DNA of 64,000 nucleotides from Octopus vulgaris (taxonomy: Eukaryota), in contig OX597817.1 in NCBI GenBank assembly GCA_951406725.2, positions 103,044,001 to 103,108,000 of the forward strand, read 5' to 3'. Position numbers and translations under genes: made by a program. The stretch's first letter is position 1; every line of letters begins with the position of its first letter. Below, piece by piece: positions 25,235-56,910 of the stretch. The notes under the pieces were generated by a model. The model was not told the DNA's origin. It saw only the letters and a program-made list of their open reading frames with translations, and did no database searches.

Positions 25235-27510
25235 CTCCAGGAGAAATTTTCACTAGGTGACACTAGTTACGTTTGGTACAAAACGTGACATAAAGACTGT
25301 CAATATCCTCTGACTTGCAGCTTTCATTGGACTGGTTCGGAAAATTTGCAGTTATAATATACAATTTTTTATACATTTCCAGAGCAGAATAACCTTCTTC
25401 TCTCCAAAGTATTCTGGAAGAATGTACTGACTCAGCTTTCCTTATTATTTATTCTAGACAGCTAAATTGATACAAAAGTAGCTCGTCAAACTATAAAAAA
25501 TAATTTTATGTTGAGAATCAGAGATAAGAAAAAGCATATTTTAACGATAAAATCTGCATACATCTGATCTGGTTTAAGTAGAGCACATTTGTCAATAGCA
25601 GACCTCCAGTGCACAAAATGAATATTGATAGGGACATTTTTGGACTCCTTTTATCAGTTTTTCTTTAGACTCAAGTCAGCCCTGATAGAGAAGAATTTCG
25701 ACCACCTGTTTCCTTCAGATATTCTAGCAAATACTGTCTGAAGTCAATATCCAACCTTCCAACCAAACATTGGATGTGCAATTACATCTTCCAATGTGCA
25801 CTCCTTTCTGTAGACAGCACTGTGGCTGAAGTAAGATTTGGCTGTTATTTCGGTAAATTGTAAAAGTTTACAAGAAAAAAAGCACACAATTCGCGGTAAA
25901 AATGTAGAAGAAAATCTTTTGGACAATAACAGTTCAATCTATTATTACGTAGGCGCATAGGTACGGACTCTTTACTTCAAAAAGGTACCAAATATTTTAT
26001 AAGCAATCAACTTATAATTATCGATTTGTTTTGCTATTCTTTTTTATCATTGACTTTATAGGGTCCTTCGTCGTCAGTGGATAAAATATCAACCGCGAGG
26101 GAGGCATGAGAGAGGATCGGTACTACTTAAAAGTGGACCCTTTATGGGCATTTTAGAACAGTCGTTAAGAACGTGAATTGAACCTTAGAGGGCGCTTCTA
26201 CGTTTATTACTTTACCGCACATCAAAAATGAATTCAAAAAATGTACTCGCATGAATATCTCTATTTTTTTCCAATCTTAACTTACTTTTCCCAAGGATAT
26301 TTATTTTCGGTGGTATCGCCAACGTCTGCCATCTCCACAATATGGCTTGGATTTACTCATTTCACCTCATGTGTTATATTCCATGGGAAAATCCTGTTTA
26401 CTTCAACATTTCTACCGTAAGATAACTGTCCATAGTTTCTACTTGAATTTTCCGTAAATTATAATTTGAAATGTCAGTCTGTGTCGGATAATAACGAAGA
26501 AGCGTCTCTAAGTGAGTTTAATCAAACTCTAGCAAGTGTTCATAAACATGACACTGATTCATCCGACATCACATGGATTATGAATATGATTTACCAAATT
26601 AGATGAAGTAAACAGTTCAAAAACTTCTTCAGAAGCTAAAATTTTATTGTCTATAACTTAGAATTATTTCAAAATATAAAATCCAGTTACGAGATCAACT
26701 AATTTAAGTAAGGATTTTATGAAGTTTGATCATCGGCGGAATTGATATCCTGAAATAAATTTTAGTCATTAGATTTTATTGGTCCATATAATGTACTCAG
26801 TTAATTATAATCGAGTGCAATAATTGAACTAAAAATGACAGGGTGCTGAAATAAATACCACAAATCATTTTGGTAACTATAGTAGTTTCCAATACCCTCT
26901 AGTTGACTGTATAAAGAAAACGTGAATTACTAACACTTTAGCCTAACTCTCAGGAATATAATCCAAATTTAAATTTCATACATCGTAATTAATAGACAAC
27001 GAATAATTGTAGTAATAAAAATTATAAACTTCTAGCAACAGTTGAACACAAAATAATTTACACAAACAGAAAATGTTCGTTGATATCAAATGAAAATATA
27101 AGTTGTGAAGATTAAAGAGAGCATTTTTCCAAATGTCGATTTAAATCCTGAAGCAAAGCACATGTTATCTGAAATAAGTTTTAAAAATAAAGTGCAATAT
27201 GGCTTCTGGATGCTGTTGTTTTACATTTAGAAATACGCTAATGAAAATTAGTTATAAACAAGCTGATATTTTTTCTTCTATTTGCAAAATGAATAATGTA
27301 CGTGACGGAGCAAAGAGTTATTTATATATTAATTATTCTAAAGAAATATTTGTTGCATAAGATGAGAAATTGATATGGCGAAGTAAGGCGACCCTAGAAG
27401 CAACCAGGAAATACTAAAGGAGAGTAAAAGTACTAATCCATATTGCTAATTAAATTGATTTTTAAAAAAATAAAATGTACAAATTATATAAAATAGATTT
27501 GATGTCTTAC

Positions 27511-27526
27511 CTTTATTCTTTGGCAT
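27511..27526 (-). CDS. EIF1A: eIF1A coding exon 1 (16 nt; MPKNK+G)
   Basis: ATG CCA AAG AAT AAA G|gtaag; joined exons (16+84+104+133+89+6 = 432 nt) give a 143-aa eIF1A. Confidence 0.95.
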
Positions 27527-27594
27527 ATTAAAGCTTCGTAATTTAACTCAATAAAATAGATAAGGTGTCAAATAGATGGAATGATGGGAAATAT

Positions 27595-27640
27595 CTATAG
27601 AGGAAGTGACCTTCTAATTTTTCAAGTTCCGGTTCTTACT
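27595..27640 (-). promoter_or_regulatory. Putative eIF1A core promoter with ETS-like sites
   Basis: AGGAAGTGAC (27601) and TTCCGGTT (27627) lie 75-110 bp upstream of the ATG in a locally CpG-richer region. Confidence 0.5.
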
Positions 27641-34725: not shown

Positions 34726-37700
34726 TTATCTACCCCACCACATTGTTTCATATATCCTTTTCGCTCCGTCCACTTTTTCTACTTTAGCCTCTGACTGAAA
34801 ATAAAGTACAAGGGCATCCCACTGTTCTATTAGAACGTTAATTACATTTTCACGCAACAACCATCTAGTTTGCGAAAGCTTTGGAATCTTGTTTTCTTTT
34901 GTGCCAACAACACTATTGAAGTCATTTTGACGTTTGCTACTTCGAGAAAAGTAAAAAGTTAAGTCCTTTAAAAAGGACTCGAGATACGAAGGTAACACCT
35001 TCACTGCATGACTTGAACAAAATGCAAACGAATGGCAAACACAGCCGATCGTTTCTCAATAACTTTTGAAACCTGCTCTTGTTACCCATCATTGTTGAGC
35101 AATTGTCACTGGCAAATCCAAGTATGCTGCTCGTAGATACATCTTTCGTAAGAGTAAACTTGACAGCATCATACAAACCCTGAGACGAATCATTTTCTAC
35201 TACAATTGCATCCGGAAAAGCATCCGTTCATCAAAAAAAGCGAACAACTATTGCTATGATTTTTGTCACTGAGATCTCCGTACTTTCATCTATCAATAAT
35301 GAAAACTTTTGTTTCTTGAGAACTTCCAAGATTTCATTTTGTTAACAATGTGCAATTTCGTCTTGCATAATGTATGTTAATTTTTTTTTTTCATTTGTAG
35401 ATTTTTTAGCTATTTCACTATCGGGAAAGGCCCTTTTACAAAGTGATTTATATAGATGAAAGGTACGTGATGTTCAGCAACATAACATATTAGTAGCAAA
35501 TCTACCTTAGCTACTTTTTCATTTAATGTATCATCTGTGTTATTTAACAATAAATGAATCTAATTTAATAGCAGATTTCGCACAATCAAAAGCTTTCTTT
35601 TGTTTGGCAGTGTTTTTATGAGCTATCAGCATTGATTTTTTAGCATTTTGCAACACAACGTTGCAACAAACGTAAGTAGCGGGTGTTAAGATTTTTATCA
35701 TCTTGTCGTAACCAATCTTTAAGCTCAGTATCCTCCAACCACGACTTCTTGAAATTTTGGGTGTATCACTTCCTCTTTTTGGACGCACTATTATCTGCCA
35801 TTACTTCGCAAAGGGTTACAAAACAAAAACACTCACTCAAAATGTTGTTAGACAAATTTTAAATCGCGAGTAACAATCGAAGCTGTCAAATGGCGGTGTC
35901 AGAGTTTCAGACAAGTGTACAACCGGCCAGAACACACCCCGTGGTAAGATCCTCTTTTCCAGCCCCATTTTGCTCTTCAGATGATATCTGAAGTAAGTGA
36001 GCAAGCCGGGGCCCGAGACAAAGGATCATATCGCGACTCCTTCCATTCTTGTTCGCCACATGCATTCTTTTACTACTGCAACCGTGCAGTGAAAACATGC
36101 CTCACCTTCCTTCGAGAGTCCAGTTGGCGGTATCATCTTAATCATAGACTCAGCCGACAGCTGTACTCGTCCCAGATGCGATAACACGTGTTCTGCGTAA
36201 CTTATCAAGTCGGACAACTTCCGACAGTGTACAAAAGCGTGCTGGACGGTTTCATCGTCCAACTCGCACCTTGGACACGTCGGTGGCACTGAAATTCCGT
36301 GCCGCGATAACTTCTCGCGAACAGGTAAAGCATTCCTATAGCACTGCCAGGCCAGGGATCTTTGGAAATTATCCAAATACCCCGTCCCGAAAGTCTTTTT
36401 AAACAGGTTGATAAGCTGGTCTTCGTCAAACCCCAGAGCCCCTCCTAAGACGTCGTCGTTCTTTGCCTCTACCAGCCTTCTGTAAAATACCGAGGTGGTA
36501 TTTCCGCAGCCGGCCTTGCCCACCTTGTGGATCAGCGTGAGTGCCTGTCGGCACTCCTTTTGCCATGAAGTCAGTTTCCATCTTTTGATGAGACCGGGTT
36601 TAAAATTCACTAAGGAGGCCGGTCTCGGGAAAAATCCCCCTGCCAGCGGACTCCACACCTTATCACCCTCCAGGTGGTGCCAGAGATGCTTCAGCCTCAA
36701 CGCATGTCTGCGCATCATCAACCAAGGCATTCCTAACCCACCCTTTAACGGTTCCTGGCAGCAAACGGAGCCCCTCACAAGTGGCTTTCCTCCCTTCCAC
36801 AAAAAGCGGAAAAGGATTCGCTCCAACTTGCTAAGCCATGAATCGGGGCAAGGGACAACGGTCAGGCGGTAAGTGATTACAGATGCAATGAACATCTGTA
36901 CCACCTCCACCCTTCCTTTCAAGGACAGAAACCTTCTGGACCAGGTCCGTACTATGGCCTCCACCTTGCTCGTCACTTCACTCCAGTTCCTCTCCGTTTG
37001 GGAGTCTGGCCCAAACCAAACTCCTAGCAACTTAACAGGGCCATCCGTCCAGTGTCCCACGACACTGGACGATATCGACTTGCTCCTCCAGGTGCCGAGG
37101 CGCAAGCCAACCGACTTGTCCTTGTTAACCTTTGCTCCTGCCACCACCTCGTATCCTCTGATAGCCTCTTCCACACAAGGTAGCTGGGCCTCATTGGACA
37201 CGATGAGGGTGACGTCATCCGCATAAGCAGTAACCGTCCTCCCACCTCCGATCTCATCCGAGTTACTTCCCAGCCTCTCCAACTTTCGCAGCAATGGCTC
37301 AAGAGCCAACACGTACAAAAGTGGTGACAAGGGGCACCCTTGACGAACTGAACATTCGATCGAAAACGGTTCCGTTAGGTAACCGTTTATCTGGACGGTG
37401 GACTTGATGCCGCTATACATAGCGGAGATCCACCCGCGAAATTCAGGGCCCAGTCCAGCCGCTTCGAGGACCGTCGCCAGGTACTCATGGTCTACCCTAT
37501 GAACGCATACGATCGGTAATTACGTCACATACAACATTTGTATCGATAAATTCGTTACGTGAGATGATTATGGATGATATATAAAGAAAGTTTACAAAGT
37601 ATTAGAAGAGGTACAACTTTGGTACAGATTGTATACAAAGAGTATGACACCGAATTCTCTTTAAAAGATAAGTTTGCAGCCAAAACTAACTTAAAAATCC

Positions 37701-38245: not shown

Positions 38246-39141
38246 GTTATTTTATTCCACATGGGTAGTTGAAAATACACTGAGAATAGTCAAAATATTT
38301 TTTATTAATATATATGAAGCTTTAACCAGTTTCACAGTTTACACTGATTTTCAAAAAGTTCAAAAAAATGTTACTTCTGACTAGTGTTTGAAGTTTGCCC
38401 TGTTTTTATAGGTAGTTCATAGCTTAAATTAGTATGTTTTCAATAGGATTTGCTTGACAGAGGATAGTCACATGACTGGTCTTAGAAATTTTTGTAGGTT
38501 CCCGCTACCTATGTCCATGTGTTAGTATCAAGTGACAATGTTTGGTGTAGTAAGTTAAGGCTGACACAGTTGACTGAACATGCCCAAAGAATCAATACTC
38601 TGAATGTTTTCTGTCAGGTGTTTGTAGAGAATGAACACATGATTAAGCTTATAGCCTTTTGTACGTTTCCTGCTATGTCTGTACATTAGTGTCATAGCAC
38701 AGACATAGCAGGAAACGTACAAAAGGCTATAAGCTTAATCGTGTGTTCATTCCCTACAAACACCTGACAGAAAACATTCAGAGCATTGATTGTTTGGACT
38801 TGTTCAGTCAACCGTGTCAGCCTTAACTTACTATGCCAAACATTGCCACTTGATACTAATACATGGACATAGGTAGCGGGAACCTACAAAAATTTCTAAG
38901 ACCAGTCATGTGACTATCCTCTGTCAATCAAATCCTATTGAAAACATATACTAATTTCAGCCATGATCTCCCTACAAAAACAGGGGAAGCTTCAAACACT
39001 AGTCAGAAGCTAGATAGCTGCGTGAAAATCAGTGTAAACTGTGAAACCGGTAAAAGCTTTAAATATTTTAGCAAAAAATATTTTCAGTGTATTTTCAACT
39101 TCTATTTTTCCTATATTTCTATCTGTGTGGAATAAAATAAC
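38246..39141. repeat. Long palindrome (~440 bp arms 38246-38682 / 38699-39141, 16-nt spacer); extra partial arm copy at ~37808-37985
   Basis: Arms are near-identical reverse complements, e.g. GGTCTTAGAAATTTTTGTAGGTTCCCGCTACC / GGTAGCGGGAACCTACAAAAATTTCTAAGACC. Confidence 0.95.
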
Positions 39142-39399: not shown

Positions 39400-40900
39400 A
39401 ATTGTAGAGGAGCCATCATGGAATATTGTCAGTATTTAAATATGCCCATAAAGTCAGTGATATTGCAGTTAAGACAAGCTATAAGCTGTCACAGAAACCA
39501 TTATCAGAAGGGAATTTTATAAAGAAATTTAGGTTGATAGCTGCAAAAGATTTTGCTAAAAAAAAAGGTCAAACCTCTTGTGTCTCAAGAAACAGTTACA
39601 GAAAGAATTGGTGACTTATGGAAGAATCTTAATAGGAAACTCAAAGATATTACTTAACATTTTCCATTGCAAATGATGACATGGGTAAATGATGTTTACA
39701 TACATGATATGGATAAAAATATGCATGTATCATGTGAATTTGTAGAACTGGTACTAATGAAGGAATATCAAGAATGGATTTTATTAGTTTCACAGGGGTA
39801 TGCAAAGTATGAGTCTCATACAGTTGGAGCGCTGCAAATGATTGATAGAAAATTTGGCTGCAAAATTAAAATAACTGCTAGCTGTGAACTTAAACTATCA
39901 ATTTCATTATGTCCATTCCATCATTTGGGGTTGTGCAGTAAAATACTGAAGTGTAATGCTATGGGTGTTATAAAGTCTGAACCACAGAGTTCAGCTGTTT
40001 TTACAAGTCACAATGTAGACTAGACTGCCATAACATAATGAACTTTGTTGGTTAAGGTGGGGAGTTGTACTAAAGTGATTTTATGAATTGTCATGTGAAA
40101 TAGATATTTCTGCAACAGAAAAGAAGGGATATGCTAGAAACTGAAAAATAGTCAAACAATTCAATGTCTAGTTTACATGGTAGTTAGAGCATTTAAATTA
40201 CTTGAATACATAGCCTCAAGGACAATATATTAGAAATAAATTTATATGACTTTACTTGTGCCTTTGAGATAAAACTTAACCTTTTTGACTATCAACTATT
40301 AAATGGTAATATACATTTCCCTACTTTAAAGTCACTGCAAAATGTTTCATATTAATATTGAAAACTAATCAAAATTTTAAAGTTAATGAATGAGTTCCAA
40401 AGACTTGCTAACTTCAAAAACTTCAATAATGATTTTTCAGTTTACTGGGACTCATTTTGTTAGAAATAATATAGCATAAGAACAAGACAGCTTGCTGGCA
40501 GAATTGTTAGGACGCTGAGCAAAATGCTTAGCAGTGTTTTATCTACCTTTACAATCTGAGTTCAACTTTTCCTTTCATCCTTTCAGGGTTGATGAAAAAA
40601 TACCAGTTGGGCAGTGAAGTCAAAGTAATTGACTTACCTCTCCTCTGAAATTGCTGGCCTTGAACTAAAATTAGAAACCAATATGGTACGAGAATATTTC
40701 CAGTGAGAATTAAATGACTGCCAGTGTAATTCTGCATTACAGTTTCCAAGTGTCTATTTGAGCAAATTATCCTATGATTAAATGTTTGGCCACAAAGGTT
40801 ATGCTACTATTCAGAAGCACATGTGAAGTCTCAACTTCAGATTAGATACACATCTCAATTCAATACTGAAATAAAGCACAAACTTTGGTATCAAAATCTG
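39400..40900 (+). mobile_element. Highly decayed hAT Charlie/Buster (GTF2IRD2-like) transposase
   Basis: AVKTSYKLSQKPLSEGNFIK and SRNTVT.RI-like motifs; interrupted by a SINE at ~40488. Confidence 0.6.
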
Positions 40901-43900
40901 ATGTAGTGTTCTGTGCAAAGACATGCCAACTACCAACAAGCAGTGATACAGGATGTATAACTAAGGTAATTAAATATGTGATTTTGTTTGCGTATTTGCT
41001 TGATTATTTGTAAGAGCTTCATATAGGCATTTATATTACCAACCAAACATATGAACACATTTCTCATGCACTTCAAGACCAGTTTTGAAACCTATATTTA
41101 GAAAGCTGAACACTATACAGGTATTCTTTTGAAAAAGCAAACATTTTGGGCTGTGGCCAATACCTGCAGAATTGAGGCATGTTTGACCTAATTACAGGTT
41201 TAAAAATTGGTCTGAAAATGTTGATCTATAACTTCAGTATATACAGTAGTTATCTGGCCTGCATACAGTGTAGTCAACTTATATTTGTTTCATCATAAAG
41301 AGTATGATATTGCATTCTAGAGTTGGTAAAACTAGTTACATTGGAAGTTTATTCATTTGACTTGAAATTAAAAAAAAAAAATTCACTATTTACTTAAGAT
41401 AATTCAACAGCTGCTTCACTTATAGACAACTGATTCAATCTTGATATTTTGCTCTTACTATGCAAATAAGTTTGATATAGATAAAACAATTCTGTCACAT
41501 ATATTTCCATCCAACCCATGCTAGCATGGAAAACGGATGTTAAACGATGATGATATGACCAATAATATTTGGAGCAGTTCTTTTTATTTTTTATATTGAG
41601 CCAAAACCATCTCTTAATTGAAGATGATGGGATGTGATTTGAAGGAGATTTGGTCACTACTTTTAACATGCTGAGTGGTGCACTCTTTGTTGGCTTGGTA
41701 AACCTGATTAGTGTGAGACAACAGATTCCTTAGGGAAAGATTTCACAGTCAAACAAAAGGATCATTTAAATAACGAAGTAGAATAAAAACTTTCTCAATA
41801 GTTTATGCTGGCATTTAGAACAAAATATATCAACAGCACATTAAGGAATTTGTAAGTTTTTATTTTCTGATTTACACTGAATATTGCCCTAAACATAGTT
41901 AAAACAAGAACCAGGTTAACATCTCTTCCAATGAGATAAGTATGATTTTTATAATGAGTGATACAATTACAACAATGAAGCACATATGCTCCATTCACAG
42001 TTAATTGCTATACTTACATTGTTTGCAAGCAAGAATGATTCAAAACATTTTCTTGAATTATGAAGGATGACCAGAAGCTGCATGGAGTAAATTTAGAAAA
42101 ATACTATCATGGTATAAATATTTACAAAAGACATGATCTGTGATGTAAAAAAAAAAAAATTAAGTTATATGTTTTGTTGAATATATTTTAACAGATATGT
42201 ATTTTGTGTAATATTTTAAGCTGAAAAACACTGACTTTGCTTCAAAATTTAGCAGCATCTTTGAAATCTTAAAATAAAAAAAGTATGAATCAAGTTTTAC
42301 ATGATAAATGAAATTTTTTACAGATTATCTTTAAAATGTATAAATTTATTCAGCAGCTTTCAATCATCAACCAACACTTGAATATCTATTATGAAATCTC
42401 CAACTGGGATTATGATGGTCCTATTTTGACAGCTTAGCTTTCATTAGAGCCTCATAAAATCAATTCTACTGTTTGTTAATCCTACATATGTCTAATGAGT
42501 ATCATGGTGCCTGTTGTATTGCCAATCAATATTCTAAGCATCGTAAGGTTTCTGGAGTTCTGTGAAGAAAATCAATTCAGTGTCTGTAATACAAACCTCT
42601 GAGAGCAAGCCAAAAAACAGGTTTTTCACCAATTAGGTGAGAATGAGATCTTGATTAATATTCTTCTGATTAAGGGTTTGACAATTATGAACTAATTTTT
42701 TTTCTTTTTCTTATCTGGAAAGGAATGTGCCTCAAATCAGAATAATGCTAGATGAGTTCAAACTAAAACAAGATAAGCACAGCTTTTTATATAAAGAAAG
42801 ACAGCTGAATGGACAGAAAATTACTCATAGTTGGATACTGCAAAGTATGAAGCTAAAATGAGTGATATGTTTAGGTCTGTATTGTGAGGAATCCTGATTA
42901 GGATGGAAAAAAAAATTTGTTCCCAGAGACAAAGAAAAGAAAGTGGCATGCAAGTGTCACCATGCAAAATTGCTGAAAAAGGAATATAAATGGAATATGG
43001 TCAGCAACAGAGATCAGTTGAGCAATTTATGACATAAGGAGAACTTAAGATCTTCCATGATAGTTACTGAAACTTTCAAAATATGTTTGTGTCACAGTAG
43101 TAATTTACTTTGAGAATGAAGGCTTTGCAACCAAGCAATCAACTCTATCTCAGGCTAGAGTTAAAAGACTGACAGGCAGCAAATTAATTATTTCATACAA
43201 GAGATCACAAAATTCCAATCATAATCAAGAGTGTAACATTTTTTGACATTCAGAAAATGTACAGGAGCACAATACTGTGTATTCAGGAAGTGTAGTGAGA
43301 TTTTAGCAGAAATTGACATCATAAAATTAATAGTGTAAGTGAAAAGAACATAAAGAAAATGACAGTATGAGCAGCTACGATGCACTGAGGACTGTGAATA
43401 GTTTAAATTGTTTGCTGGAAGTTATAGATAAGTTCTGCTAACTAGATGATATAATTAGAGCTACATGTAGAGTCAATGGCAGCATGGTGATTGGAATTTG
43501 GAAGTAGAGAGATTAGAGAAGGCATATCTGTTGGTAATAAAGGTTTCTACTCACTGTATGAGAGCAAGGCTATATCAAGCTTGTATAAAAGATGTATAGC
43601 AGTGAAAGCAGAGAAACTACAGTGACGAGAGAGAAATGATTGATTGTAATCTAGTGGAAGTACAAAAAACATGAAGTGAGAAAATAACTGCATATCAAAG
43701 CATAGGTCAATACTAATGTAACTGACTGATGCTTGCTGAGTGAAAGAGTGAAGTGATGGTGGAGAATATTCATTTTAGAATCAAACCAAGGAAGACTTGA
43801 GAATTAGTTAGGCTACACCTGAGGAGCCTCACAGAAATGAGACAAATAGAAAAATATATTGCAAACCCATTTAACCCATGCAACATGAAAAAAAAAATAT

Positions 43901-44847
43901 ATATTAAAATAAATAATTAAAAAGCAAAACAAAACAATGAGAACAGGGTACTTATTTCTCCTTTTGTAAACCAGAAAACCTGAAACATCACAAAAGCATC
44001 CTGCAAGCTGTTTTGAGTCAAACACAAGTAAACAGTAAGGAACCAGTAAGATTTTGTTTCACAAGCAGAATTCTTTCAATGTATGAAATCCCGAATCTGT
44101 TTCACATATCGCATCTGAATGAAGGTGAAGACATGTAATTGATGAAATTTAAAAGACAGCTTAATATAAATAATATAGCCAATATTTTTACAATGATATT
44201 GTTGTGGTTGTTTAGCTCAGGTCAGCCTAAACTGAGCAAATAGATCTGTGATCAAAAGCATTCTAATTGTGACCATCCCATCTTTTTTTTTTACTTCAGA
44301 TGTAGTGTGTATTTAATGTGCTTTTTGCTTTTAAGAAGGTATAGTATGCAATTTGATGGAAATTTGGCTGTTTTTTCTAGTAATTCAAGTAGCTAGAAAA
44401 CAGCTGCCTTCATAATAACTGACAAGCTCCTTTGCTCAGTATAAGCCTCTGAATATTCACTGAGATTGAAGATTTGATTCAAAGTTAGTGGGTTTCTTTT
44501 TAAACTTAAAACTTCTTTGAACATTTTCCTATGATTCAGTATTTTTCAGATTTTCAAGTGTTAATATTGTATTTAGTATCTATAATTAGTGAGGTTTTCC
44601 TCTTCAACTGAAAAATATATTTCTATTATAAAAAAACATACTATCACAGAAAAAGTCATTAAGAACTCTAAAGACATTCATGAACTAATCTAACAATTAC
44701 AATACACTTAGAAAAAATTTTTTTACATAAACAAAATCTAATAATTTGGTAAGAAGGTAATTTGAAAAAAACATAACTTCTTTTCCTTTTTAAACATATT
44801 TATGTTTAGTTTCATTCTGCATAAAAAAAAAAAAAAAAATCATATAG

Positions 44848-45932
44848 TCAAGTTACTTTGAAATAGTTCCCTTGAGATTCCACACATAATTCCATATGTT
44901 TAAACCAGCTTTCAAAGCATTCAATCCAATCTTGAGGGGTTAGCAACATAGTAGCTTGAATAAATGCACTAAGAGCATCTCCAGGCTTGTTAAATTTAAT
45001 TCCAATAAGATCTTTTTTCACTTTAGGATATACAAAATAATCCCAAGGAGATAAATCAGGACTGTGAGCAGGATGTGTAATTAATTGAATGCTATTCTCA
45101 GCAAGACAGTCCATAGTCACTGCAGCAGTAAGAACATTTATATTACTATGATGGAGAAGAATACCTTGGAGTCCAGAATCTTTTCTTACTTCTTTGATCT
45201 TTTCAAATAATTCAGGTAAACATTTTGTTAAATACCAACTAGGATTAACTTTGGATTTGTCTTTGAGTAAAATAGTAGCAAGGTTACCAGATTTACTAAA
45301 AAAATTTACAATTGTTTTTTTTTGTACATTTGGTGGATGTTTCCATTTAAGATAGTAATCTTCATCGAGGAAAGTCCATACTGTAGATGGCTTTTTAGAT
45401 TCAGTATATTGATAAAGTTGGAATTCAACTCCAAGAACAATATTTTCAATTTTCTGATGTGCTCCATTTTGAAACTTTTTTAGCATAAACTCACACCATT
45501 CCATTCTGGCCAACTTCTGCTCTTCACTTAAGATTTGAGGAACCCAGCACATATTTAGTTTGCGAACATATAAATAATCATGAAGGATTGATCGAACACT
45601 TTCTGATCCAATATTCAATACACTTTCTAACTCTTTATAAGTCACTCTAGAATCTTCTTTTAATAACAGTTTAACTGCTTCAATGTTTTGAGGTGTGACA
45701 GTTGTGTTAAGAATTTCGCTATCCGCACATTCATTAGTTTGTTCAAATTCTTTAAACCAAAATTCAACAGTACAATATGGGGGGCTTTGGTCTTGAAATA
45801 CTTCATGAAGTACCTCTTGGGATTCAGCAACAGTTTTTCCCTCACAGTAATGTAAGAATATCATGTCTCGAAAGTCTCGATTTTGCAGTTTCATAGAAAA
45901 CACTTGCCTCTGCAGCCTAATTTTATCAAGTT
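44848..45932 (-). CDS. Mariner (DD34D)-derived, catalytically dead transposase-like protein; main coding exon of a putative domesticated gene
   Basis: Stop-free 361 codons collinear with a full mariner transposase (two HTHs, WVPQIL, HPAHSPDLSPWD, C-terminal WF..M..CV...G.YF); triad reads V/S/34/D; T-rich ...ttttccag acceptor at 45933-45934. Confidence 0.85.
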
Positions 45933-46273
45933 CTGGAAAAAAAAAAGACATCACAAAAGAACTCTTAAAATGTGTCTTTAAAAAATTCTTAAAATAAATA
46001 TTTATATACATATAATCGAGAACAAAACAATACAGAAAAATAATTCTTACTTTAAGAATAAATAGTGAAGCAGTAGAAATTAAAATAGAGAAAATATTTT
46101 ACACATTGAGGAAGAAATGTAACTTTTTGAGTGGGGCCCCTTCCATGAAGAAAATGTTTCTTTTCATCAGAATTCCATACATTTTAATAATATAAAGTCT
46201 CTAACAAATCTTGTGCTTCACAAATTTTTTACTAATTTATGGAATTTAATATATATGCATACATATCCATGTT

Positions 46274-46314
<41 letters not shown>

Positions 46315-46341
46315 AATAATTACTGTGAAGCATTGTGTAGA

Positions 46342-46674
46342 ATATATTGTATAAAAGATTGTGGGTAAGGCCAAAACAATGCAAAGTAAATCATAAGAAA
46401 CAAATATGTGAATTAATGTAGACTTATCATGTATTCAATATTTTGGGGTTATGACCAAAATTTTCAAGAAATTGACAAATGTTGCTGATGTGCGTGAGCG
46501 CTCACACACACACATATTGGCAACATTTGTCAATTTCCTGAAAATGGGGTCATAACCCCGAAATACTGAATATAAGGTAAGTCTACTTTAATTCACATAT
46601 TAGTTTTCTTGTGATTTATCTAGCATTTACTTCGCATTGTTTTGGCCTTACCCACAATCTTTTATACAATATAT
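46342..46674. repeat. Fold-back inverted repeat (arms 46342-46491 / 46511-46674)
   Basis: TATTGTATAAAAGATTGTGGGTAAGGCCAAAACAATGC vs GCATTGTTTTGGCCTTACCCACAATCTTTTATACAATA. Confidence 0.92.
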
Positions 46675-46870
46675 ATATATATGCACATCTATATACTCAT
46701 ACTAACCACTACACAAAAGCAACATCACAACACTGATTGTCCAAATCACAAGACAAGATTTAACTGAAGTACCTTAGATTACATATACCAGTAACCTTTC
46801 AACAGGGAGCCTAGTTAACAGAGCAGTAATGTATGGTATTGTATATTTTAATGAAGAAAATGGAAAAATG

Positions 46871-46901
<31 letters not shown>

Positions 46902-46989
46902 ACATTTTATGTGTGTGTGTATGGTGTACTGTTCTGTGATAGTAAGACCACAAAAAAAGTACTCTACCTGGTAAGAGATAAATATTATT

Positions 46990-48720
46990 TAATAAACAAT
47001 GTTTTTATGTGCTACTATTAGTTTCATGTGATGAGAACATGCCAGACAGTATTTTTTTTAACACATCTGGTGTCCTAGCACTGGGACAATAGGATGAAAG
47101 AAAAAGTGAGAAACGGCGAGAAAGAAGTTAGAAAGTTGAAAAATTGGAAAACAAAGAAGCAAAAGAGAGGGGGATCAGAGTACTCTTCCCTTTGACTGTA
47201 AAATATAAGTTTGATAAGATAGCAGCTTAGAGTCTGTGGTACACCTGTTCAAACCAGAAAGGGCGGCACTTTCCAATTCATCAACAGGAACTTAGCCATA
47301 TGCTTACAACTACTGAAAATTTTGGATCTAGAATTCAATAGTGTGTTAGTGTTTTTAGATCCTAGTTCTTTCAGCTATGCATAGCTTACATTTTTTGATC
47401 TGTTAACATATGGCGTGGATTTTTCAACTTCAAACCCCATATGTTGCTAGCTTTACTTTTTTTTATGTCCTTGTGTCAGAAGGAAGATATGTGATTAGCA
47501 TAGTGATTTCTGAATTTGCCTTCAGTCTGATATAGCTCTTCTTAAAGATTGTGTTATGATATTGCATTGCTGTAACTTCTGCCTCATATATGACAGATTT
47601 AATCATATATCTCTGGTTGAGTGGACAGGTTCCTGGGTCTCGAAAGTTACAACTGGGAGAGGGATCTTGGTGTTGTTCTCATGTAATGATGCTTTTCATA
47701 TTGGGGCAGCAGCTATATAATTTCACTGTATGCCTGTTAAATATTTTCCCATACCTGTGATTTTCTGGAAAATGTTTTGTCTAGGAGAGACAAGAATCTT
47801 TTACCTGTGTTAGTTTTTACATTAATGGAGGGGGGGATTTTCTTAGGTCATATTATTATCATTCCTATTAATATTAGATGGGTTATTAATTCATCCTTAA
47901 AGTCACTGTTAGTTAGGGCACTGTTGTAGTAGGTGGCTGCCTTCTTGAAAATTTCTTTAGAGGAACAAAGGTTAGAAATTCTGTTACTAATGTTAGCTAT
48001 TAGATTTTAAGATTCTACAGGGTGACAAGGCTATGTATATAAAAAAGTTTCTCATTGGGCATATGATAAGGTTTATAAGAGGAGTTCAGGACTAATGAAA
48101 CATCTAAAAAATCAACTTTAGACTGATTAGTAGCAACTGTGATTTTAAGGCCTAATTGACTGAAGGTTGAAGTAAGTTGACTCCTAAATTTATCTAGGGT
48201 GTGATCATTACAGCCATGGGAAATACCCAATTTGTCATCTCAGTATAGACCAACATCATTAGATCTCAATGTGTTTAATACAGAGACCCACAAGATCACA
48301 GACATCAGCACTATTACATAATTCCATTGATACATCAAACAATTCATCATTATCTAACATTTTTATCCATGCTGAGCTCTTACTAAACAGTAGTGTTTTC
48401 CTCACATGATGATAAAGCTTAGGTTTACAGGGTCTATATCAACATGATTTAGCAAACTTGATGGCTTTATCAAGTAGCAATCTTGGTATGGAGGGATAAC
48501 ACTATGTCAAACTGAGTAAAACTAGCCCTATGCTTATTCTTAATGTTCTTGAACCAAACTATTACAGTAAAACTTGGTCTCTTTAATTTTATTTTTAATG
48601 TTTCTTAGTATTTTTTTTTAACTACTAGCCCAATTTTAGTTCCTGCTGGGTTTAACAATCTACATGGCATACTCTCATCACATGAAACTAATAATAGTAG
48701 CATATAAAAACATATATTGT
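46990..48720 (-). mobile_element. Decayed 5'-truncated Penelope-like element (RT + GIY-YIG) with inverted pLTR copy
   Basis: LGLKITV...VDFLDVSL..YKPYHMPN...YIHS RT motif; Cys-rich linker and SYI..EG.F..HYANH endonuclease remnant; 48660-48715 is the inverse of 46995-47045. Confidence 0.8.
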
Positions 48721-48729
48721 CTTTATTAA

Positions 48730-48948
48730 CCCTTTTGATACCAACCCACCTGAAACCGCTTCTGGCTCTGTAGTACAAATGTCTTGTTTTCAAAAGTTCT
48801 GAATTAAAATCTTCCATCAAACCTTAGTCACAATTTATGTTCTTAAAACTATCTTAATGATTAAGTTATTTTACTAAATTCTTTGTTATATTTAAAATTA
48901 ATTGAAAGAAACACAGAGCATCTCAACAGAAATATGGTAACAAAAGGG
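48730..48948. mobile_element. TTAA-flanked piggyBac-type MITE
   Basis: TTAA|CCCTTTTG...CAAAAGGG|TTAA; a second copy lies in inverted orientation at 59653-59874. Confidence 0.85.
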
Positions 48949-48955
48949 TTAAATA

Positions 48956-48990
<35 letters not shown>

Positions 48991-50465
48991 CACACACACA
49001 CAGAAATAATTAAGATTCAGCTGTATTAGTTACTTAAGTTGAAGCACCAAGTCAGTCCGGTATTATCTGCGCAGCTCAAAGTATTCACACACACACACAC
49101 ATATATATTAGTTCAAATGTACAGAAAACAAAAAAAGACCGGTGAGGGAACAACAAGCTGGTGTATTAGTTTGATGCTGTGTAATTAAAACCAGTTTAAC
49201 TTCAAACATAAGTTAAAAATCATTTAATGCTGTGTTTATATGTATGAAAAGTAGAAATATAACAATACTTTTTTCACAGAATAAGTGTTCTTATATTACA
49301 GCTTAGCTGAAATTATATTGGTATTTTAAAGGTGAGTTTGGCATATATAATTTACTTAAACATGTATAACAAACATAATAAAGATGGTTGAGAAGAAGGG
49401 AAAACAAAGAGTCACATGCTGCTTCGAGTCTTTTGTATAAAAGAAGATATAGTTATTTTTGAGTTTTGCAGCTATAGTCCTGGGTTGACCACAGCTTTCT
49501 TGAGTGGATTTGGTAGTTGGAAACTGAAAGAGGAATGTGTGTGTTTGACATCATGTGTAAATGAGTGTCACAGTGATACAATCAGTGTCACTCTTTTCCA
49601 ATATTCTGTGAGAACATGTCTGACCATGAGGAAACATTACCTTGCTTGGAAATGAGTGAAGATTGGTGACAAAATAGGCATCCAGCAATAGAAAATCTGT
49701 CTCAATAAATTGAGAATAGTTGTGTGAAAAAGTGCCACACCCTAGTGTTTGAGGGAACCTGTGGAAGAGATAGACCCAGGAAGACCTGTGATGAGGTGGT
49801 GAAGTATGACCTTCGAACACTAGGCCTCACTGAGGCAATGACTAGTGACTGAGCCTAGTCACTAGCCATTGCCTCGGTGAGCCTTACCCATAAGATTAGT
49901 TGGGAACCGAAGCAACTGAACAAAGCCAGCAAGAAGATATCCCTGGCAAGTGAAAGCAGTATAAGAGGTTGTGGTATATGCTACAAAATGGGTGGCGTTA
50001 GGAAGGATATCCAGTCCTAGAAACTATGCTACAACAGATACTGGAGTGTGATGCAATCCTTGGATCCACCAGAGTTTATTAAATTGTCCACCCAATGCCA
50101 GCATGGAACATGGATGTTAAAATGATGATAGTTTACATGTGTGTGTGTGTGTGCACACACACATAGATCCTTATATACAAACATACATATATATATAAAT
50201 AAGTATATGCATACATAGTGGTCAAGCATCCATCACTGACAAGACCAAGGAAGGTTAAAATCATGTGATCTAAACAAGAGTGCATTTTGCACCAACAGCC
50301 AATAAGACATATACATGTTTAAAGACACATTCATATACATATGTAGATGTATGCATGTGCACCTGAATGCTGTGTATGCTCATGTGCATGTATGTTTCCT
50401 TGCATCCTCATACAGAATGTGTGTGGTTACATGCTCATATAACCCTGCATTCATGCTTGTATATA

Positions 50466-53057
50466 TCATCATCATCATCATCGTTTAACGTCCGCTTTCC
50501 ATGCTAGCATGGGTTGGACGGTTCAACTGGGGTCTGGGGAGCCCGAAGGCTGCACCAGGCCAGTCAGATCTGGCAGTGTTTCTACAGCTGGATGCCCTTC
50601 CTAACGCCAACCACTCCAAGAGTGTAGTGGGTGATTTTATGTGCCACCGACACAGGTGCCAGACGAGGCTGGCGAACGGCCATAATCGGATGGTGTTTGT
50701 TACGTGCCCACAGCACGGAGGCCAGTCGATGTGGTACTGGCTACGGCCACGTTCGGATGGTTTTCTTATGTGCCACCGGCACTGGTACCACAAAGATACA
50801 AATTCCATTGATGTTCATCTATTTTGATTTGGTTTGATTTTCACTTGCCTCAGCAGGTCTTCACAAGTGTCCCAAGAAGGAAGGTATGCACAGGTGGACT
50901 GGCTACGTCACAGGTAGGGGCCATGGGTTATAGCCTCACTAGTCTTGCGGGGTCTTCTCACGCACAGCATACTTCCATAGGTCTCGGTCTCTAGTCATTT
51001 CCTTGGTGAGACCTAAAGTTCGAAGGTCGTGCTTCACCACCTCATCCCAGGTTTTCCTGGGTCTACCTCTTCCACAGGTTCCCTCAACTGCTAGGGTGTA
51101 GCACTTTTGCACACAACTAACTTCAGCCATTCTTGTCACACGACCATACCAGCGCAGACGTCTCTCTTGCACACCACAACTGATGCTTCTTAGGTTCAAC
51201 TTTTCTCTCAAGGTACTTACACTCTGTCGATTATGAACACTGACATTACACATCCATCGGAGCATACTGGCTTCATTTCTTGCGAGCTTACGCATATCCT
51301 CAACAGTCACGGCCCATGTTTCACTACCATGTAGCATGGCTGTATGTACACATGCATCATACAGTCTGCCTTCTACTCTGAGCGAGAGGCCTTTTGTCAC
51401 CAGCAGGGGTAAGAGCTCTCTAAACTTTGCCCAGGCTATTCTTACTCTAGCAGTTACACTTTCAGCACACCCACCCCTACTACTGACTTGGTCACCTAGG
51501 TAGCGGAAGCTATCAACTACTTCTAGTTTGTCTCCCTGGAACGTGGTAGAAGTTGGTCTCTGCACATTTCCAGTGTTTATTGCTCCTGAGCATCTGCCAC
51601 AGACAAAAACTATTTTCCTAGTTAGCCTTCCTTTGACATTGCTGCACCTCTTATGTGTCCATAGCTTACACTTGGTGTACCTTATAGAGTTTCTACCTAC
51701 ACCTTTTTTACAGATCGAGCAGGGCCATCTACCTGAAGTCGTTTGTGATTGGTCCACCTTCCTACTTATTAGGACTTTGGTTTTGGCTAGGTTGATTCTA
51801 AGGCCCTTCGATTCTAATCCTTGTTTCCACACCTGAAACTTCTCCAGTTCTGATAGTGACTCAGCAATTAGAGCAAGGTCATCAGCATAGAGGAGCTCCC
51901 AGGGGCATCTTGTCTTGAATTCCTCCGTTATTGCCTGGAGGACTATGATAAATAGGAGGGGACTAAGGACTAAACCTTGGTGGACCCCAACCTCTACCCG
52001 GAATTCTTCACTGTACTCGTTGCCAACCCTCACCTTACTAGCAGCGTCTCTGTACATGGCTCGCACAGCTCTCACTAACCATTCATCTATCCCTAGTTTC
52101 CTCATTGACCACCAGATAAGGGATCGGGGGACCATGTCAAAGGCTTTCTCCATGTCAACAAAAGCCAGGTACAGGGGCTTATCTTTGGCTAGGTATTTCT
52201 CCTGCAGCTGTCTTACCAGGAATATAGCATCAGTAGTACTTTTCCCTGGCACGAACCCAAACTGCATCTCATCTAAGCTAACTCTCTCTCTAATTAATTG
52301 GGCTATAACCCTCTCCGTAACCTTCATTACCTGATCCAGCAACTTGATACCCCTGTAGTTATTTGTATCTAGAGTGTCACCTTTACCTTTGTAGCAGTTG
52401 ACTATTATGCTGCTACACCAGTCATTGGGTATGACTCCTTCGTGTATCACCTGGTTAACTATACGGGTGACTAGGCTATAGCCAACACTACCAGATATTT
52501 TGAGCATCTCTGCAGTAATTCCTGATGGGCCTGGGGCTTTCCCTGTTTTCATGCTTGTAATTACCTTAACTACTAAGGAACTGTTAACTCGGATTGCTGG
52601 TCCCTCTGTTGGGTCGACATTCGGCAGACTCTCTTTATCCCATTCATTTTCCTCATTCAGCAACCTTTCATAGTGGCGTCTCCAAGCCTCTCTCTTTGCA
52701 TCCTCATTTAGCGCAAGTGAACTGTTATCCTTGCGAACACATTTCTCTCCTATCACGTCACGATTCTCTCTCACACACTGTCTTGCAACACGAAATACCT
52801 CAAGTCTTTCATCCTCACGGCTCAGAACATTGGCAAATTTTTTCTTATCTGCTTCCCCTCTGGCTAGATAGACCTGTCTCCTAGCTTCCCTTCTGGCAGT
52901 CTGATACACTTCCCTGCTACCACCATTCTTCCAAGCCTGTTTCTTTGGTCTAATAGCCCTGTCAACAATATTGTTCCACCACCACGTTATTTTGGGTCTT
53001 AAGGGGACTTTGCACCAGCCACAGATCTGGTCAGCGGCTTTCAGCAGGTTGTCCCTA
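50466..53057 (-). mobile_element. Young 5'-truncated RTE-clade LINE with intact RT ORF (50939-52909), 3' UTR and (GAT)n tail
   Basis: 656-aa ORF: KAPGPSG, NYRGIKLL, QFGFVPG, FVDMEKAFD, GVHQG, LYADD, HGSETW, RRLRWYG, RGRPRKTW; the endonuclease domain is absent. Confidence 0.95.
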
Positions 53058-53939
53058 CAAAAGGCATGTGTGTGTTTACATGGCTGAGGTGAGCAGAAAT
53101 ATATATATATATATGTGAACCACTAAGCAAAGTCAATTTGTATGAAGCTCCCACCAACTTCACCAATTACTCCCTTAACTGAACTATGTCAACCTTTCAT
53201 CCCAACAAGATGTTCCTCCACACCAAACACCAGAGCAGAATAAGTACTTCAATTACAAGTCCACTACTTTCAAATGCAAAATACACTGCAACATTAATTT
53301 CACCAAAACCTAATTACAATCTCCTAAACACTCCTGTTTCCTTCCTCAAACCATTTTGGTTTTACTGTCATAACTTTCTCCTCTTCACCTCAGTTACAAA
53401 ACCTTGAGTGAATGAATATACCATGGGAAGGTGAGGGTTATCTAATCTTACAGCAAACAAAGCAACTCTAATACCTATCCTGTCCGGTCTATAAAATGGT
53501 CTGTAAAGATAATAGTACACTGTCTTTCCTATCAATTATTTAAAATACATATACAATTTTCATTTAATAATTTAATGTCCACTTTTCCATGCTTGTATGC
53601 TTGTATGGGTCAGACAGAATTTGAAGAGACATCTTTTTTACCACCAGATGCCATTCCTGCCACCAACTCTGACCTGTTTTCAAACAAGGTAATACTTCTC
53701 ATGGTCAAAAAAAAAAAAAAAAAAATTCATAGAAGACTGGAAACAAAATAAGATTGCTTTTATGAAGATGATGCTCATTTACAACAATTATGTGATGTCA
53801 AGACAAAAGGTACACATGCACACAAAGGATGAACTACAAAATCTACCCACAAGGTTTGGATTGGCTTGAGGTTATAATAGAAGACTCTTGCCCACGGTAC
53901 TATGCAGCTGAACTGAATACAAAACCACATGGTGTGTGA

Positions 53940-54290
53940 GTGTGTCTAAGTGGATTGAACATGTGGAGGAGGGAGACCCAGAATAAAGTACTGAAGGCTG
54001 ATCTCAAGACACTGAGCCTTACAAAGGAGATGACTAAGAACTGAGATACATGGCACATTGCTGTACTCAAAGAAGTACACAGCAGAATTGATACTGGTGT
54101 TGATGCCACATAAAAAGCACCCAATATGCTCTGTGGAGTGGTTAGTGTTAGGAAGGGCATCCAGTTGCAGAAACCATACCAGAACAGACAATGGAGCCTG
54201 GTATGGCCCTTGGTCTTACCAGCTCCAATGAAATCATCCAACCCATGTCAGTATGGAAAATGAATATTAAATGAGGATGATGATGATGAT
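53940..54290 (+). mobile_element. RTE 3' end fragment (similar plus-strand pieces at ~80-385, 49700-50130 and 63020-63520)
   Basis: GTTAGGAAGGGCATCCAG...CCAACCCATG..AGCATGGAAAA...(GAT)n shared with the RTE 3' UTR. Confidence 0.8.
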
Positions 54291-54677
54291 ATATAAAACA
54301 TCATCATGTAACATCTATCTTCACGACTGGCATGTATTGGATGGTTTGACAGAATACAATGGGTGAAAGGACTGCACAGTGCCTCAGTCTTTGCTTTGGT
54401 ATATTTTCTATTGCACTATGTCCTTTTATTGGAAACAAAAATGTGAGATCTGCAAGACTATGAACCCCTTTGACTGAATGGGATACAGTAGAGAGGGAGA
54501 TACAGTATGAAGGTAGGGGCCAAAACACATCCTCTAGAGGTGAAGATAATTCATAGAAATCAAGAATTTTTTTTTATGGTATATGATATATCTATCTGTA
54601 CTCTGCTGTTATGTGTGCTCATTTTACAAATATATTTAATATAATTTAATTTGGCGAAAGGAAACAATGACGTTACC

Positions 54678-54776
54678 AGCGAAGGTAAAGAATATGCACA
54701 CCCGGAGTTTGGGGTTAGGACTAGAGTTTAGAGTTACACCGAAAATGGATGGTGTGCGTATTCTTTACCTCTGCCG
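54678..54776. mobile_element. Tiny TIR element with an internal telomere-like repeat
   Basis: AGGTAAAGAATATGCACACC / GGTGTGCGTATTCTTTACCT flank GGGGTTAGGACTAGAGTTTAGAGTTA. Confidence 0.6.
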
Positions 54777-56690
54777 ACGATACCTACTAACATTTAAACT
54801 TGAATATAAATAGGGAGGGAATTTGATTAGCAACTCATCAGAACTAATTGGTTGAAACCACAGCTATTGTTTTTTGTTAATCTCATAAACCTATCGGTGC
54901 TGAATTGTTACACACTAAAATTTAATGGGTAAGACTGAGTTCCTATCGGAAAATAAATTGAATAGAAACCTCAACAAGATATTGTTTTCTTTGCTTTACT
55001 AAAATAATGAAATAATTAAAGATATTTCAAAAACAAATATAATTTTTAAGCTTATAATATCTATACATTCAAGTTTGCTTAACTTTGGTGCTTCGCATCA
55101 TAGATACTTTTAAATGTTTTTACTGCTAAATTGAAATTTTAGCATTATGTCGACTCGTTACCTGAGGTCAGTCGTATTATAACGTTGGTTTAATGATCTC
55201 ACAAGTTACAGACGACCATTCCGGTGGATTACACGACCTTTTTGTGTCTATAGTCTTGCTACAGGCAAACCAGCGAGTGCTTAATTGGTCAGCCTACGTA
55301 ACCAGAGAGGTGAAAAAAAAATCACCACTGTAAACAACAGGCGTTAAGCACTCCGTGACTGGCGAAACGTTTCGTTAGCTTACATAGCTGGACTCAAATT
55401 CTCTTTTTCTCGCACACCCCCGAGAAAATAAACGGTATAAATATGAAGTATTCAGTGAAATTCCAATAGGTTATAAATACTTACCTACAGCAACCCTTAG
55501 CAGTCAAAAAACATTTAGCAGTTATCAAGCAGCTTGTACCAAGACACATTTAAATGATTAAAATCTTCACTTAGATAGGGAACAGGTGTTCCCATAACGA
55601 ATAAGGCGTTTATCTAAGCTTACATCACAAAAAACTATTTTGACCGGCAAATAATTTTGTAAAACAATCCGAGAAAATTAACAGTGAATTGAGTCGGCAA
55701 AAGAGTAATAGTAAGTAATTCATCGGGTTAGATTGGAAAATCGAGGAATATAGAAAAACCATAGGTGTTGGTATAGAATTATGAATCAAAATTAAGATAC
55801 TCATTTTATTGTTAATCAAAAAATAAGCATAACAATTAAATTTCCCGATTAACGATAATATTAATCCAATAAATAGCATGACAAATATCAGTGAGAAAAG
55901 GCATGTACAAGCAATGAAATATTTTTACCGATTATTTGGTAATTTACAAGAATCAATTACGTCAGATTTCTTATAAAAATGAGTTTTAGAATGCAAAATA
56001 AGCTTACAGTTAAAAATAATAAGAATAGACAGTTTAATCAAAAAACAAACAACCAATTTTGAATATTTCGTTAGAAAAATACAGTATTTTCGCAAGATGC
56101 GCAAAGGAATGATGTATGGCTACACGATGGTATATTGAACATTTTCACGGAGCAAACAGCTTAAGTTATTGAAAATATGTTTGGTTATAGTACATACTAA
56201 AAGAAGAAATTACAATAATTACTTCTGATTTCTTCAAGTATAAGATATAGGATTATTGGAATTGTTAGTTCGATAAAAAGCATGGTTGTTAATTATTTTA
56301 CAGAACATTAGCAAGAGTACGTTCCCAGACTAGCAATTAGGCCATTCCAGAAAAAAAAAAAAGAAAAAGCATAGACAAGAACAGTTATTTTAATTATTAA
56401 AACATTAAACATATGTATGAACTTATAATTAAAACTAGCTAAAAAAAAATGTACCCTTTTTAAAGTCGTGTATTGCAAAAGTATTATTATTAAAGACAGA
56501 GAATTAATTCACAGGCTGCCTATGCAGCACTGTTCTATTTTTTCGACGGGAAGATTTGTAGTACAAAGCAAACATACAACACATAAATCCACGAGGAAAT
56601 GCACGGCAAGCAGAAGGCAAATGTAGCAGCCAAAATCACCGAACATGTTACATTCTTACAGGCAACTGTTACATGCTAACTGTACGTTAC

Positions 56691-56706
56691 CTTTCATCTT
56701 GGGCAT
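56691..56706 (-). CDS. Putative 16-nt first coding exon (MPKMK+G), paralogous to eIF1A exon 1
   Basis: taatATGCCCAAGATGAAAG|gtaa vs eIF1A taatATGCCAAAGAATAAAG|gtaa (21/24 identical); phase 1 matches the acceptors at 45933 and 17480. Confidence 0.65.
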
Positions 56707-56859
56707 ATTATAACACCTCGCTCCAAACTATGGAGCTGAGACATGAACAAGCAAACAACCCTCCAGTGCAATAGATGAATTATGGGAGATATTGTAGATT
56801 TATTTATTTCTTTTTAATTTCACTTTTCTTCCCCTTTTTCAGATGGTTTCTTGTGACAT

Positions 56860-56910
56860 TACCTGGTTCGTGTGTAGTGGCATTTTAAGGCGGAAGTTAC
56901 GTATTAGAAT
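56860..56910 (-). promoter_or_regulatory. Putative promoter with ETS-like site GCGGAAGTTAC
   Basis: Resembles the GGAAGTGAC site upstream of eIF1A exon 1, in the same orientation, within a CpG-richer, TE-poor stretch. Confidence 0.4.

Follow-up and report, generated by a model that had tools for sequence, protein, structure and literature searches.

A spliced, single-copy octopod gene of mariner transposase origin and its sister transposase in the SMARCE1 locus

How does a mariner transposase frame stay open over its full length when the residues that define a working transposase have changed, and what would such a protein be kept for? We addressed this question in Octopus vulgaris, using a window of 64,000 nt (assembly GCA_951406725.2, contig OX597817.1, 103,044,001-103,108,000, forward strand) whose numbering is used throughout. 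On its minus strand, the stretch 44848-45932 is open without stop or frameshift and its translation is a complete mariner-type chain, as a preliminary description had noted; that description had read the frame as a catalytically dead transposase domesticated by its host.

A spliced, single-copy host gene

The open reading frame is exon 2 of a two-exon host gene with a product of 366 residues. A splice joining 45932 to 56691 is present in contigs of all four public runs used (X1, X2, X6 and X10 from four studies, 4 of 24 listed; the RNA type was guessed by the tool and contigs carry no expression level). Position 45932 is a splice acceptor, and the ATG is found 10.8 kb further upstream (56706); both points were absent from the preliminary description, as was the sister gene inside SMARCE1 described below. 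The gene is laid out as follows:

56691..56881 (-): exon 1, 5' UTR and 16 coding nt, ATG at 56706; joint in 4/4 runs
45933..56690 (-): intron, 10,758 nt, GT-AG (CT..AC on the plus strand), containing a LINE ORF and a small foldback element
44848..45932 (-): coding part of exon 2, a 13-residue linker (ELDKIRLQRQVFS) followed by the whole transposase-derived chain to TGA
41810..44847 (-): 3' UTR, about 3 kb, AATAAA at 41864; 3' end placed from record lengths

Exon 1 codes for MPKMK and the first base of E6, and ends in a phase-1 donor (AAG/GTAAC). Its contig pieces extend to 56784, 56864 and 56881, the last being the furthest contig end and not a mapped start, and at the other side the contigs of the four runs end at about 41810-41870 (position from record lengths). 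Translated together, the two exons give P0005, a predicted O. vulgaris protein of 366 residues with the N-terminus MPKMKELDK. P0004 and P0005 are letter-for-letter the same as the window over the shared part, and neither was counted as independent. Exon 2 with its flanks has a single DNA match in the genome, and a processed copy is therefore not indicated. That is, the window holds a spliced, single-copy octopod host gene of mariner transposase origin.

For the 413-residue isoform P0004, no supporting joint was found among the joints listed; its extra C-terminal residues seemingly come from two small exons at 40020-42080 (-), with a donor immediately ahead of the stop codon. Right behind that codon (44812-44840 (-)), a long T tract runs into CAG and resembles a second splice acceptor. 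It was unused among the joints listed, and the reads are cut at that repeat.

The mariner (DD34D) ancestry of the chain is evident from a bipartite HTH, a WVP linker, an RNase H-like domain, SPDL and the 34-residue spacing. Pfam matched HTH_48 in the frame (E 6e-8) and no other domain, the PDB relatives were Mos1 and SETMAR only (7 sequences), and an atlas cluster look-up returned generic mariner clusters only. Domain search found no SET domain, in line with the earlier statement that this is not SETMAR; that identity was rejected, and the name 'SETMAR-like' carried by the Octopus bimaculoides protein P0006 is a transferred label. With Mos1 and Hsmar1 (DD34D), the protein has in common the domain order, WVP and SPDL, the D-34-D spacing and the predicted fold; in contrast to them, its gene has no TIRs, is single copy, contains an intron and has lost two of the three catalytic aspartates:

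45427..45429 (-): first catalytic Asp position, now Val174 (alignment with Mos1 and relatives)
45145..45147 (-): second catalytic Asp position, now Ser268 (alignment with Mos1 and relatives)
45040..45042 (-): third catalytic position, Asp303, retained in O. vulgaris, Glu in Argonauta (alignment)

Alignments with Mos1 and free relatives confirmed the motif changes read earlier: TGDE has become LGVE (D174 is now V), HDNA has become HSNI (D268 is now S), D303 stands 34 residues after S268, WVP and SPDL are retained, and the RxGRP linker has been replaced, with a deletion of four residues. The D-D-D triad of an active mariner is thus not intact (V174, S268, D303). Inverted repeats were likewise missing, as the preliminary description had stated: no inverted arm pair flanks the frame in 43500-47500, and a control, copy L012 of a young mariner family, shows 43-nt arms at 93%. 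An active mariner element was rejected on these grounds (two aspartates lost, no TIRs, a single DNA match). Together, the residue losses support a protein that has lost catalysis and would no longer cut DNA.

The fold appears to have outlasted the active site. An AlphaFold2 model, built on a 75-row alignment, had a mean pLDDT of 87.8, with low confidence in the linker and in residues 190-197; both HTH units were predicted to be folded. The predicted catalytic domain was placed on Mos1 4MDA with Z 24.1 and an rmsd of 1.8 A over 197 residues, a likeness that shows the fold only, because it is expected from the alignment used. Structure prediction had been proposed as a check, and the catalytic domain came out as a kept fold.

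We then compared relatives. Close relatives formed two clusters among 1,464 candidates, P0002 (97%) and the Argonauta hians protein P0003. The latter is identical to the window protein at 317 of 366 residues (87%), including MPKMKELDK; as a yardstick from the same species pair, three low-complexity tail exons of SMARCE1 are 42-51% identical and a fourth 84%. The database name of P0003, 'serine-rich adhesin ... isoform X6', was rejected since the protein has no such region, and is probably a transferred label. No squid or cuttlefish orthologue was recognised in a cluster listing that left the window protein's own clade unseparated too. Within the dead catalytic domain, 162 of the 191 residues are conserved.

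Could the frame be a neutral fossil, open by chance and read from a leftover promoter? We regard this as close to negligible and largely refuted. What leaves room for it is that omega was taken against the paralogue and that support for the gene is at the transcript level. Against it, all 1500 lineages in neutral simulations (substitutions only) carried a stop at 0.2 substitutions per site, to be set against a window-clade stem of 0.67 amino-acid changes per site. The 87% identity to Argonauta speaks against it too, as does a comparison with the sister gene (dN 0.41; dS 1.79, near saturation), which gave an omega of 0.23 with a bootstrap upper bound of 0.35; eight open copies of the young mariner family had dN 0.035 and dS 0.047 over 28 pairs. 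Run X10 had ten substitutions, every one of them in the 3' UTR (P = 0.04), and the coding part was free of substitutions in the other three runs too. The earlier argument that heavy substitution without disruption implies selection is in line with these results. With a single copy, spliced contigs that skip a GT-AG intron in 4/4 runs, an orthologue in Argonauta, the residue losses and purifying selection (omega measured against the paralogue), we consider domestication as a host gene practically certain, as the preliminary description had proposed. Its call for transcript evidence was likewise answered by the spliced contigs in 4/4 public runs (RNA type guessed).

The first exon and its resemblance to eIF1A

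The gene of eIF1A lies 29 kb downstream of the window gene on the same strand, and the two first exons are alike:

27507..27530 (-): eIF1A exon 1, ATG 27526, MPKNK, 16 coding nt, phase-1 donor
about 17480, 13170, 11850 and 9670 (-): further eIF1A exons (exon matches)
56687..56710 (-): eIF1A-like 24-nt stretch around ATG and donor of the window gene, 21/24 positions equal to eIF1A exon 1

Within the window, only these two sites match at 3 mismatches or fewer (0.01 expected), and the next best of 836 ATG-N13-GT sites in 588 kb (both window strands and 41 loci, with 6 redundant loci left out) had 8 mismatches. A pattern built from both sites was found at only two places in the genome, which is partly by construction. 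Given the match at 21 of 24 nucleotides, exon 1 of the window gene is probably a duplicate of eIF1A exon 1. From this we infer that the promoter and first exon of eIF1A were duplicated locally before Argonauta and Octopus split.

Outside the ATG-donor block, promoter and UTR resemble those of eIF1A only weakly (a level reached by 57 of 2000 shuffles), and the resemblance may come from a motif that housekeeping genes share. A block common to both first exons (56770-56800 and 27570-27600 (-)) resembles what we take to be a ZNF143-type promoter motif; its presence could be due to common descent or to a motif widespread in housekeeping genes. Near the gene, a tblastn search found no remnants of later eIF1A exons (best E 0.4 apart from the true exons). 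Three contigs cross the junction of exons 1 and 2 unbranched, and among the joints listed no loose end pointed to a splice from the MPKMK exon to eIF1A exon 2, in contigs that drop rare forms.

The surroundings are rich in mobile elements. The intron of the window gene holds an open 727-codon reverse-transcriptase (LINE) frame on the gene's own strand (50939-53122 (-)) and a foldback (MITE-like) element with 50-nt arms at 98% (46342-46674); a second foldback (MITE-like) element, with nested arms of up to 250 nt at 95%, lies downstream of the gene (38292-39084). Broken pogo/Tigger (CENP-B_N and DDE_1) and Pif1 helicase (Helitron-like) pieces sit in eIF1A introns (14497-15564 and 21955-22506), and a 497-codon LINE frame (36026-37519) lies between eIF1A and the window gene. 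Elsewhere in the genome, the young mariner family (L003-L020, L034-L043) has more than 100 matches that differ by about 4%. Many of them contain an open frame of 350 codons, L012 has TIRs, and the family may have been active recently. An exon scan upstream of the window revealed no clear neighbour gene.

A sister transposase in SMARCE1

A genome search with reciprocal comparison, covering the best 116 of 26,046 candidates, identified a sole close paralogue of the window protein, 48% identical; the rest were 25-29% identical. The paralogue is located in the gene of a chromatin remodelling subunit:

L002:1456-2562 (C17:56097270-56098376): sister exon, in the last intron of SMARCE1/BAF57

It has the same phase-1 acceptor as the window gene and a related linker (ELDKVKQQTNLSVFTMKLQ). 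Exons upstream of it match human SMARCE1 (HMG exon, E 6e-20; coiled-coil exon, E 5e-6), and the last of them ends in a phase-1 donor, compatible with the transposase as well as with an ordinary phase-1 last exon beyond. LARP7 as the gene beyond SMARCE1 was a guess with no Pfam match and was rejected. An Argonauta gene model of 1,243 residues (P0156) runs from SMARCE1 into a sister-type mariner transposase, and in O. bimaculoides the RefSeq annotation has the sister as a free protein of 353 residues (P0006). On the basis of phase and the Argonauta model, the sister is thus predicted to be spliced onto the SWI/SNF subunit SMARCE1. Its Argonauta model thereby includes a folded host effector domain, which the window protein does not have.

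The sister keeps D-D34-D with altered flanks, and both AT-hook arginines. It is 99% identical in O. bimaculoides and 91% in Argonauta, and its HTH1 and linker are identical to Argonauta at 70 of 71 residues; it is arguably the more striking half of the pair. In a tree of 28 rows, the window clade and the sister clade are each other's sisters (100/99) and each splits into Argonauta and Octopus, with a stem of 0.67 for the window clade versus 0.32 for the sister clade; a quick tree of 84 rows gave the same picture. Between the sister and the nearest free transposases, identity is 41-48%. Among conserved columns, shared derived changes number 3, window-only changes 17, sister-only changes 10, and 7 columns differ between the two. 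With so few shared derived changes, duplication and double insertion are not separated: we lean moderately towards the window copy as a DNA-level duplicate of the SMARCE1 exon, and give a second insertion of the same element a substantial, if smaller, chance.

Two segments make up the DNA-binding half of the protein:

45694..45894 (-): HTH1 and linker, residues 19-85, retaining the dimer-face residues and lacking the AT-hook arginines; net charge -8
45559..45693 (-): HTH2, residues 86-130, most conserved part, 43/45 identical to Argonauta

The passages of a SETMAR study devoted to this region (PMC9062482) describe dimerisation through HTH1, with the dimer residues I341, F344 and F363, and an AT-hook containing R392 and R395; for Mos1, dimers require the N-terminal 55 residues, according to the relevant section of PMC3561948. 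In our alignment, the three dimer residues correspond to M, L and F in both sisters. Both AT-hook arginines (R392 and R395 in SETMAR numbering) are kept in the sister and lost in the window protein. The position of R371, a base-reading residue of SETMAR HTH1, is C in the window protein and S in the sister, and since it is not Arg in either, the SETMAR mapping serves only as a guide. The net charge of HTH1 and linker is -8 in 3/3 orthologues versus +4 in 4/4 sister proteins, and ranges from -1 to +7 in 19 free relatives (one of 20 was dropped as too short). HTH2 is neutral, like that of the relatives. Window protein and sister have 33 of 67 HTH1 and linker residues in common.

Possible roles and known systems

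What would such a protein do? Our preferred reading, held tentatively and drawn from residue conservation, is that the window protein may be a non-cutting dimer partner of the SMARCE1-transposase sister. Before the split of Argonauta and Octopus, one mariner lineage with a phase-1 acceptor before its frame would have been captured on two occasions: in SMARCE1 by the donor of the last intron, and in the case of the window gene by a duplicated eIF1A promoter and first exon, which likewise ends in a phase-1 donor. The window copy would then have changed fast, losing catalysis and the minor-groove arginines, and would have been conserved since. The HTH1 dimer face, the same in both sisters, would allow a heterodimer with only one complete DNA-binding arm, which would dampen, redirect or scaffold the way in which the SMARCE1-transposase form is targeted to chromatin, in the manner of PiggyMac-like proteins with PiggyMac. 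We favour the partner role because the dimer face is kept, cutting and minor-groove contacts are lost, and the sister is the only related protein left in the genome. Three points weigh against pairing: the dimer-face residues are generic hydrophobics; the sisters may no longer pair, given that only 33 of 67 HTH1 and linker residues are common; and HTH2, best conserved and neutral, would suit contact with DNA of its own or with another partner.

The preliminary description had suggested a chromatin or DNA-binding factor or a dominant-negative transposase inhibitor. Its dominant-negative idea would be more fitting with the domesticated sister as target. That the protein inhibits active transposons is unlikely, the resident multi-copy mariner family being just 25-29% identical to it and distant in the tree. 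Host defence of this kind, in which dead mixed dimers would poison active mariner transposases, has some appeal in a genome where young mariner copies exceed 100 and many of them retain an open frame and TIRs, and for a catalytically dead protein that keeps the HTH1 hydrophobic face. We nevertheless judge it very improbable, as the resident family falls in a different, strongly supported part of the tree, and the genome search turned up no active mariner from this protein's clade, although the gene is still constrained in two octopod families. As for the DNA-binding idea, the loss of both AT-hook arginines and the acidic HTH1 and linker make a TIR-type binder less likely. An independent regulator could still homodimerise through HTH1 and read a new target mainly by HTH2, with the acidic surface recruiting partners or activating. 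This we consider possible, if rather doubtful. It would agree with the conservation of HTH2 (43/45 identical to Argonauta versus 38/45 in the sister), with the predicted folding of both HTH units, with the 7 of 9 major-groove hydrogen bonds that HTH2 makes in SETMAR (structural passages of PMC9062482), and with the 76.5% share of DNA-binding domains among host-captured transposase parts given in bioRxiv 10.1101/2020.05.07.082677. It is at odds with the loss of both AT-hook arginines, the deletion of four linker residues and a net charge of -8 against -1 to +7 in all 23 other rows, and no other copies of the parent family turned up as targets among the best candidates of the genome search.

Alternatively, the protein might be an adaptor or scaffold whose host partners have nothing to do with the sister; its dead RNase H-like domain would be a platform for protein or RNA, and the acidic N-terminal face may mimic DNA or bind basic proteins, e.g. 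histones. Conservation along the whole chain, the dead catalytic domain (162/191 residues) included, and a burst of change followed by stasis would suit such a new function, and a housekeeping first exon would be expected to give broad expression. No partner is positively indicated, however, no motif or domain beyond HTH_48 was found in the protein, and we think this role unlikely. A simple pattern search detected no basic NLS-like cluster in the window protein.

Pairing with the sister has a precedent in Paramecium. There, the PiggyMac-like proteins are domesticated paralogues with no catalytic site that bind the sister keeping the triad and play an architectural part (PMC6143343); they are our working model for the window protein. 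They differ in belonging to the piggyBac family, in acting in programmed DNA elimination and in that binding was shown experimentally, whereas pairing of the window protein is predicted from conserved residues and is not known to involve DNA rearrangement. CSB-PGBD3, as outlined in the sections of PMC3459987 that describe it, fits the sister locus: there too, a chromatin-remodelling gene can end in a transposase exon instead of its usual last exon, its normal form remaining possible. There the element is a piggyBac and here a mariner, and here the window gene is a second, free-standing and more diverged copy elsewhere, whereas for CSB-PGBD3 the same sections describe other copies as decayed and a solitary transposase from a cryptic promoter in the same locus.

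KRABINER and SETMAR (Cosby et al., bioRxiv 10.1101/2020.05.07.082677, as far as its summarised results go) resemble the window gene in the full-length mariner frame with an acceptor just upstream of its ATG, the in-frame joining to a host exon and the conserved single copy. In the window gene, by contrast, the host contributes just five residues, probably from a duplicate of a housekeeping gene's first exon, which means that a promoter and start codon were captured and no effector domain; in addition, this is a mollusc gene whose protein lost the TIR-binding arginines that SETMAR keeps. The domesticated Tc1/mariner genes of Drosophila, in the portion of PMC13548663 that introduces them, are likewise conserved, expressed single-copy genes. 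They keep either the DNA-binding or the catalytic module, whereas the window protein keeps the whole chain and loses hallmark residues of both. In the main-text excerpts of a survey of transposon-derived factors that includes Octopus (PMC10027918), mariner is mentioned once and other families are covered; its supplements could list the gene. A search of literature mostly outside subscription found no published account of a SMARCE1/BAF57-transposase or mariner fusion in octopus, and the window gene is a real domesticated gene that has apparently not been described.

The partner reading can be taken one step further, to a conjecture we advance with considerable doubt: a two-part regulator built from one mariner. 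In it, the triad-keeping sister would provide SWI/SNF, through SMARCE1, with a sequence-specific DNA arm; the window protein, expressed from a duplicated eIF1A promoter and DNA-blind owing to its acidic HTH1 surface, would pair with that arm as an Id-like brake or switch for where the remodeller is targeted. If true, this would be a third route of Tc1/mariner domestication, in which the dimer scaffold is kept and not catalysis or DNA binding.

Domesticated transposases are common. This locus offers a gene birth that can be traced, probably to the capture of a first exon duplicated from a housekeeping gene; two sisters that met opposite fates, with one predicted interface between them; and, through SMARCE1, a connection to the core of SWI/SNF. 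Should pairing prove false, it would still be a well-supported, apparently undescribed octopod gene of transposon origin. If pairing is true, octopods would direct and adjust a chromatin remodeller by a means peculiar to their lineage, with a bearing on the rebuilding of gene regulation in cephalopods.
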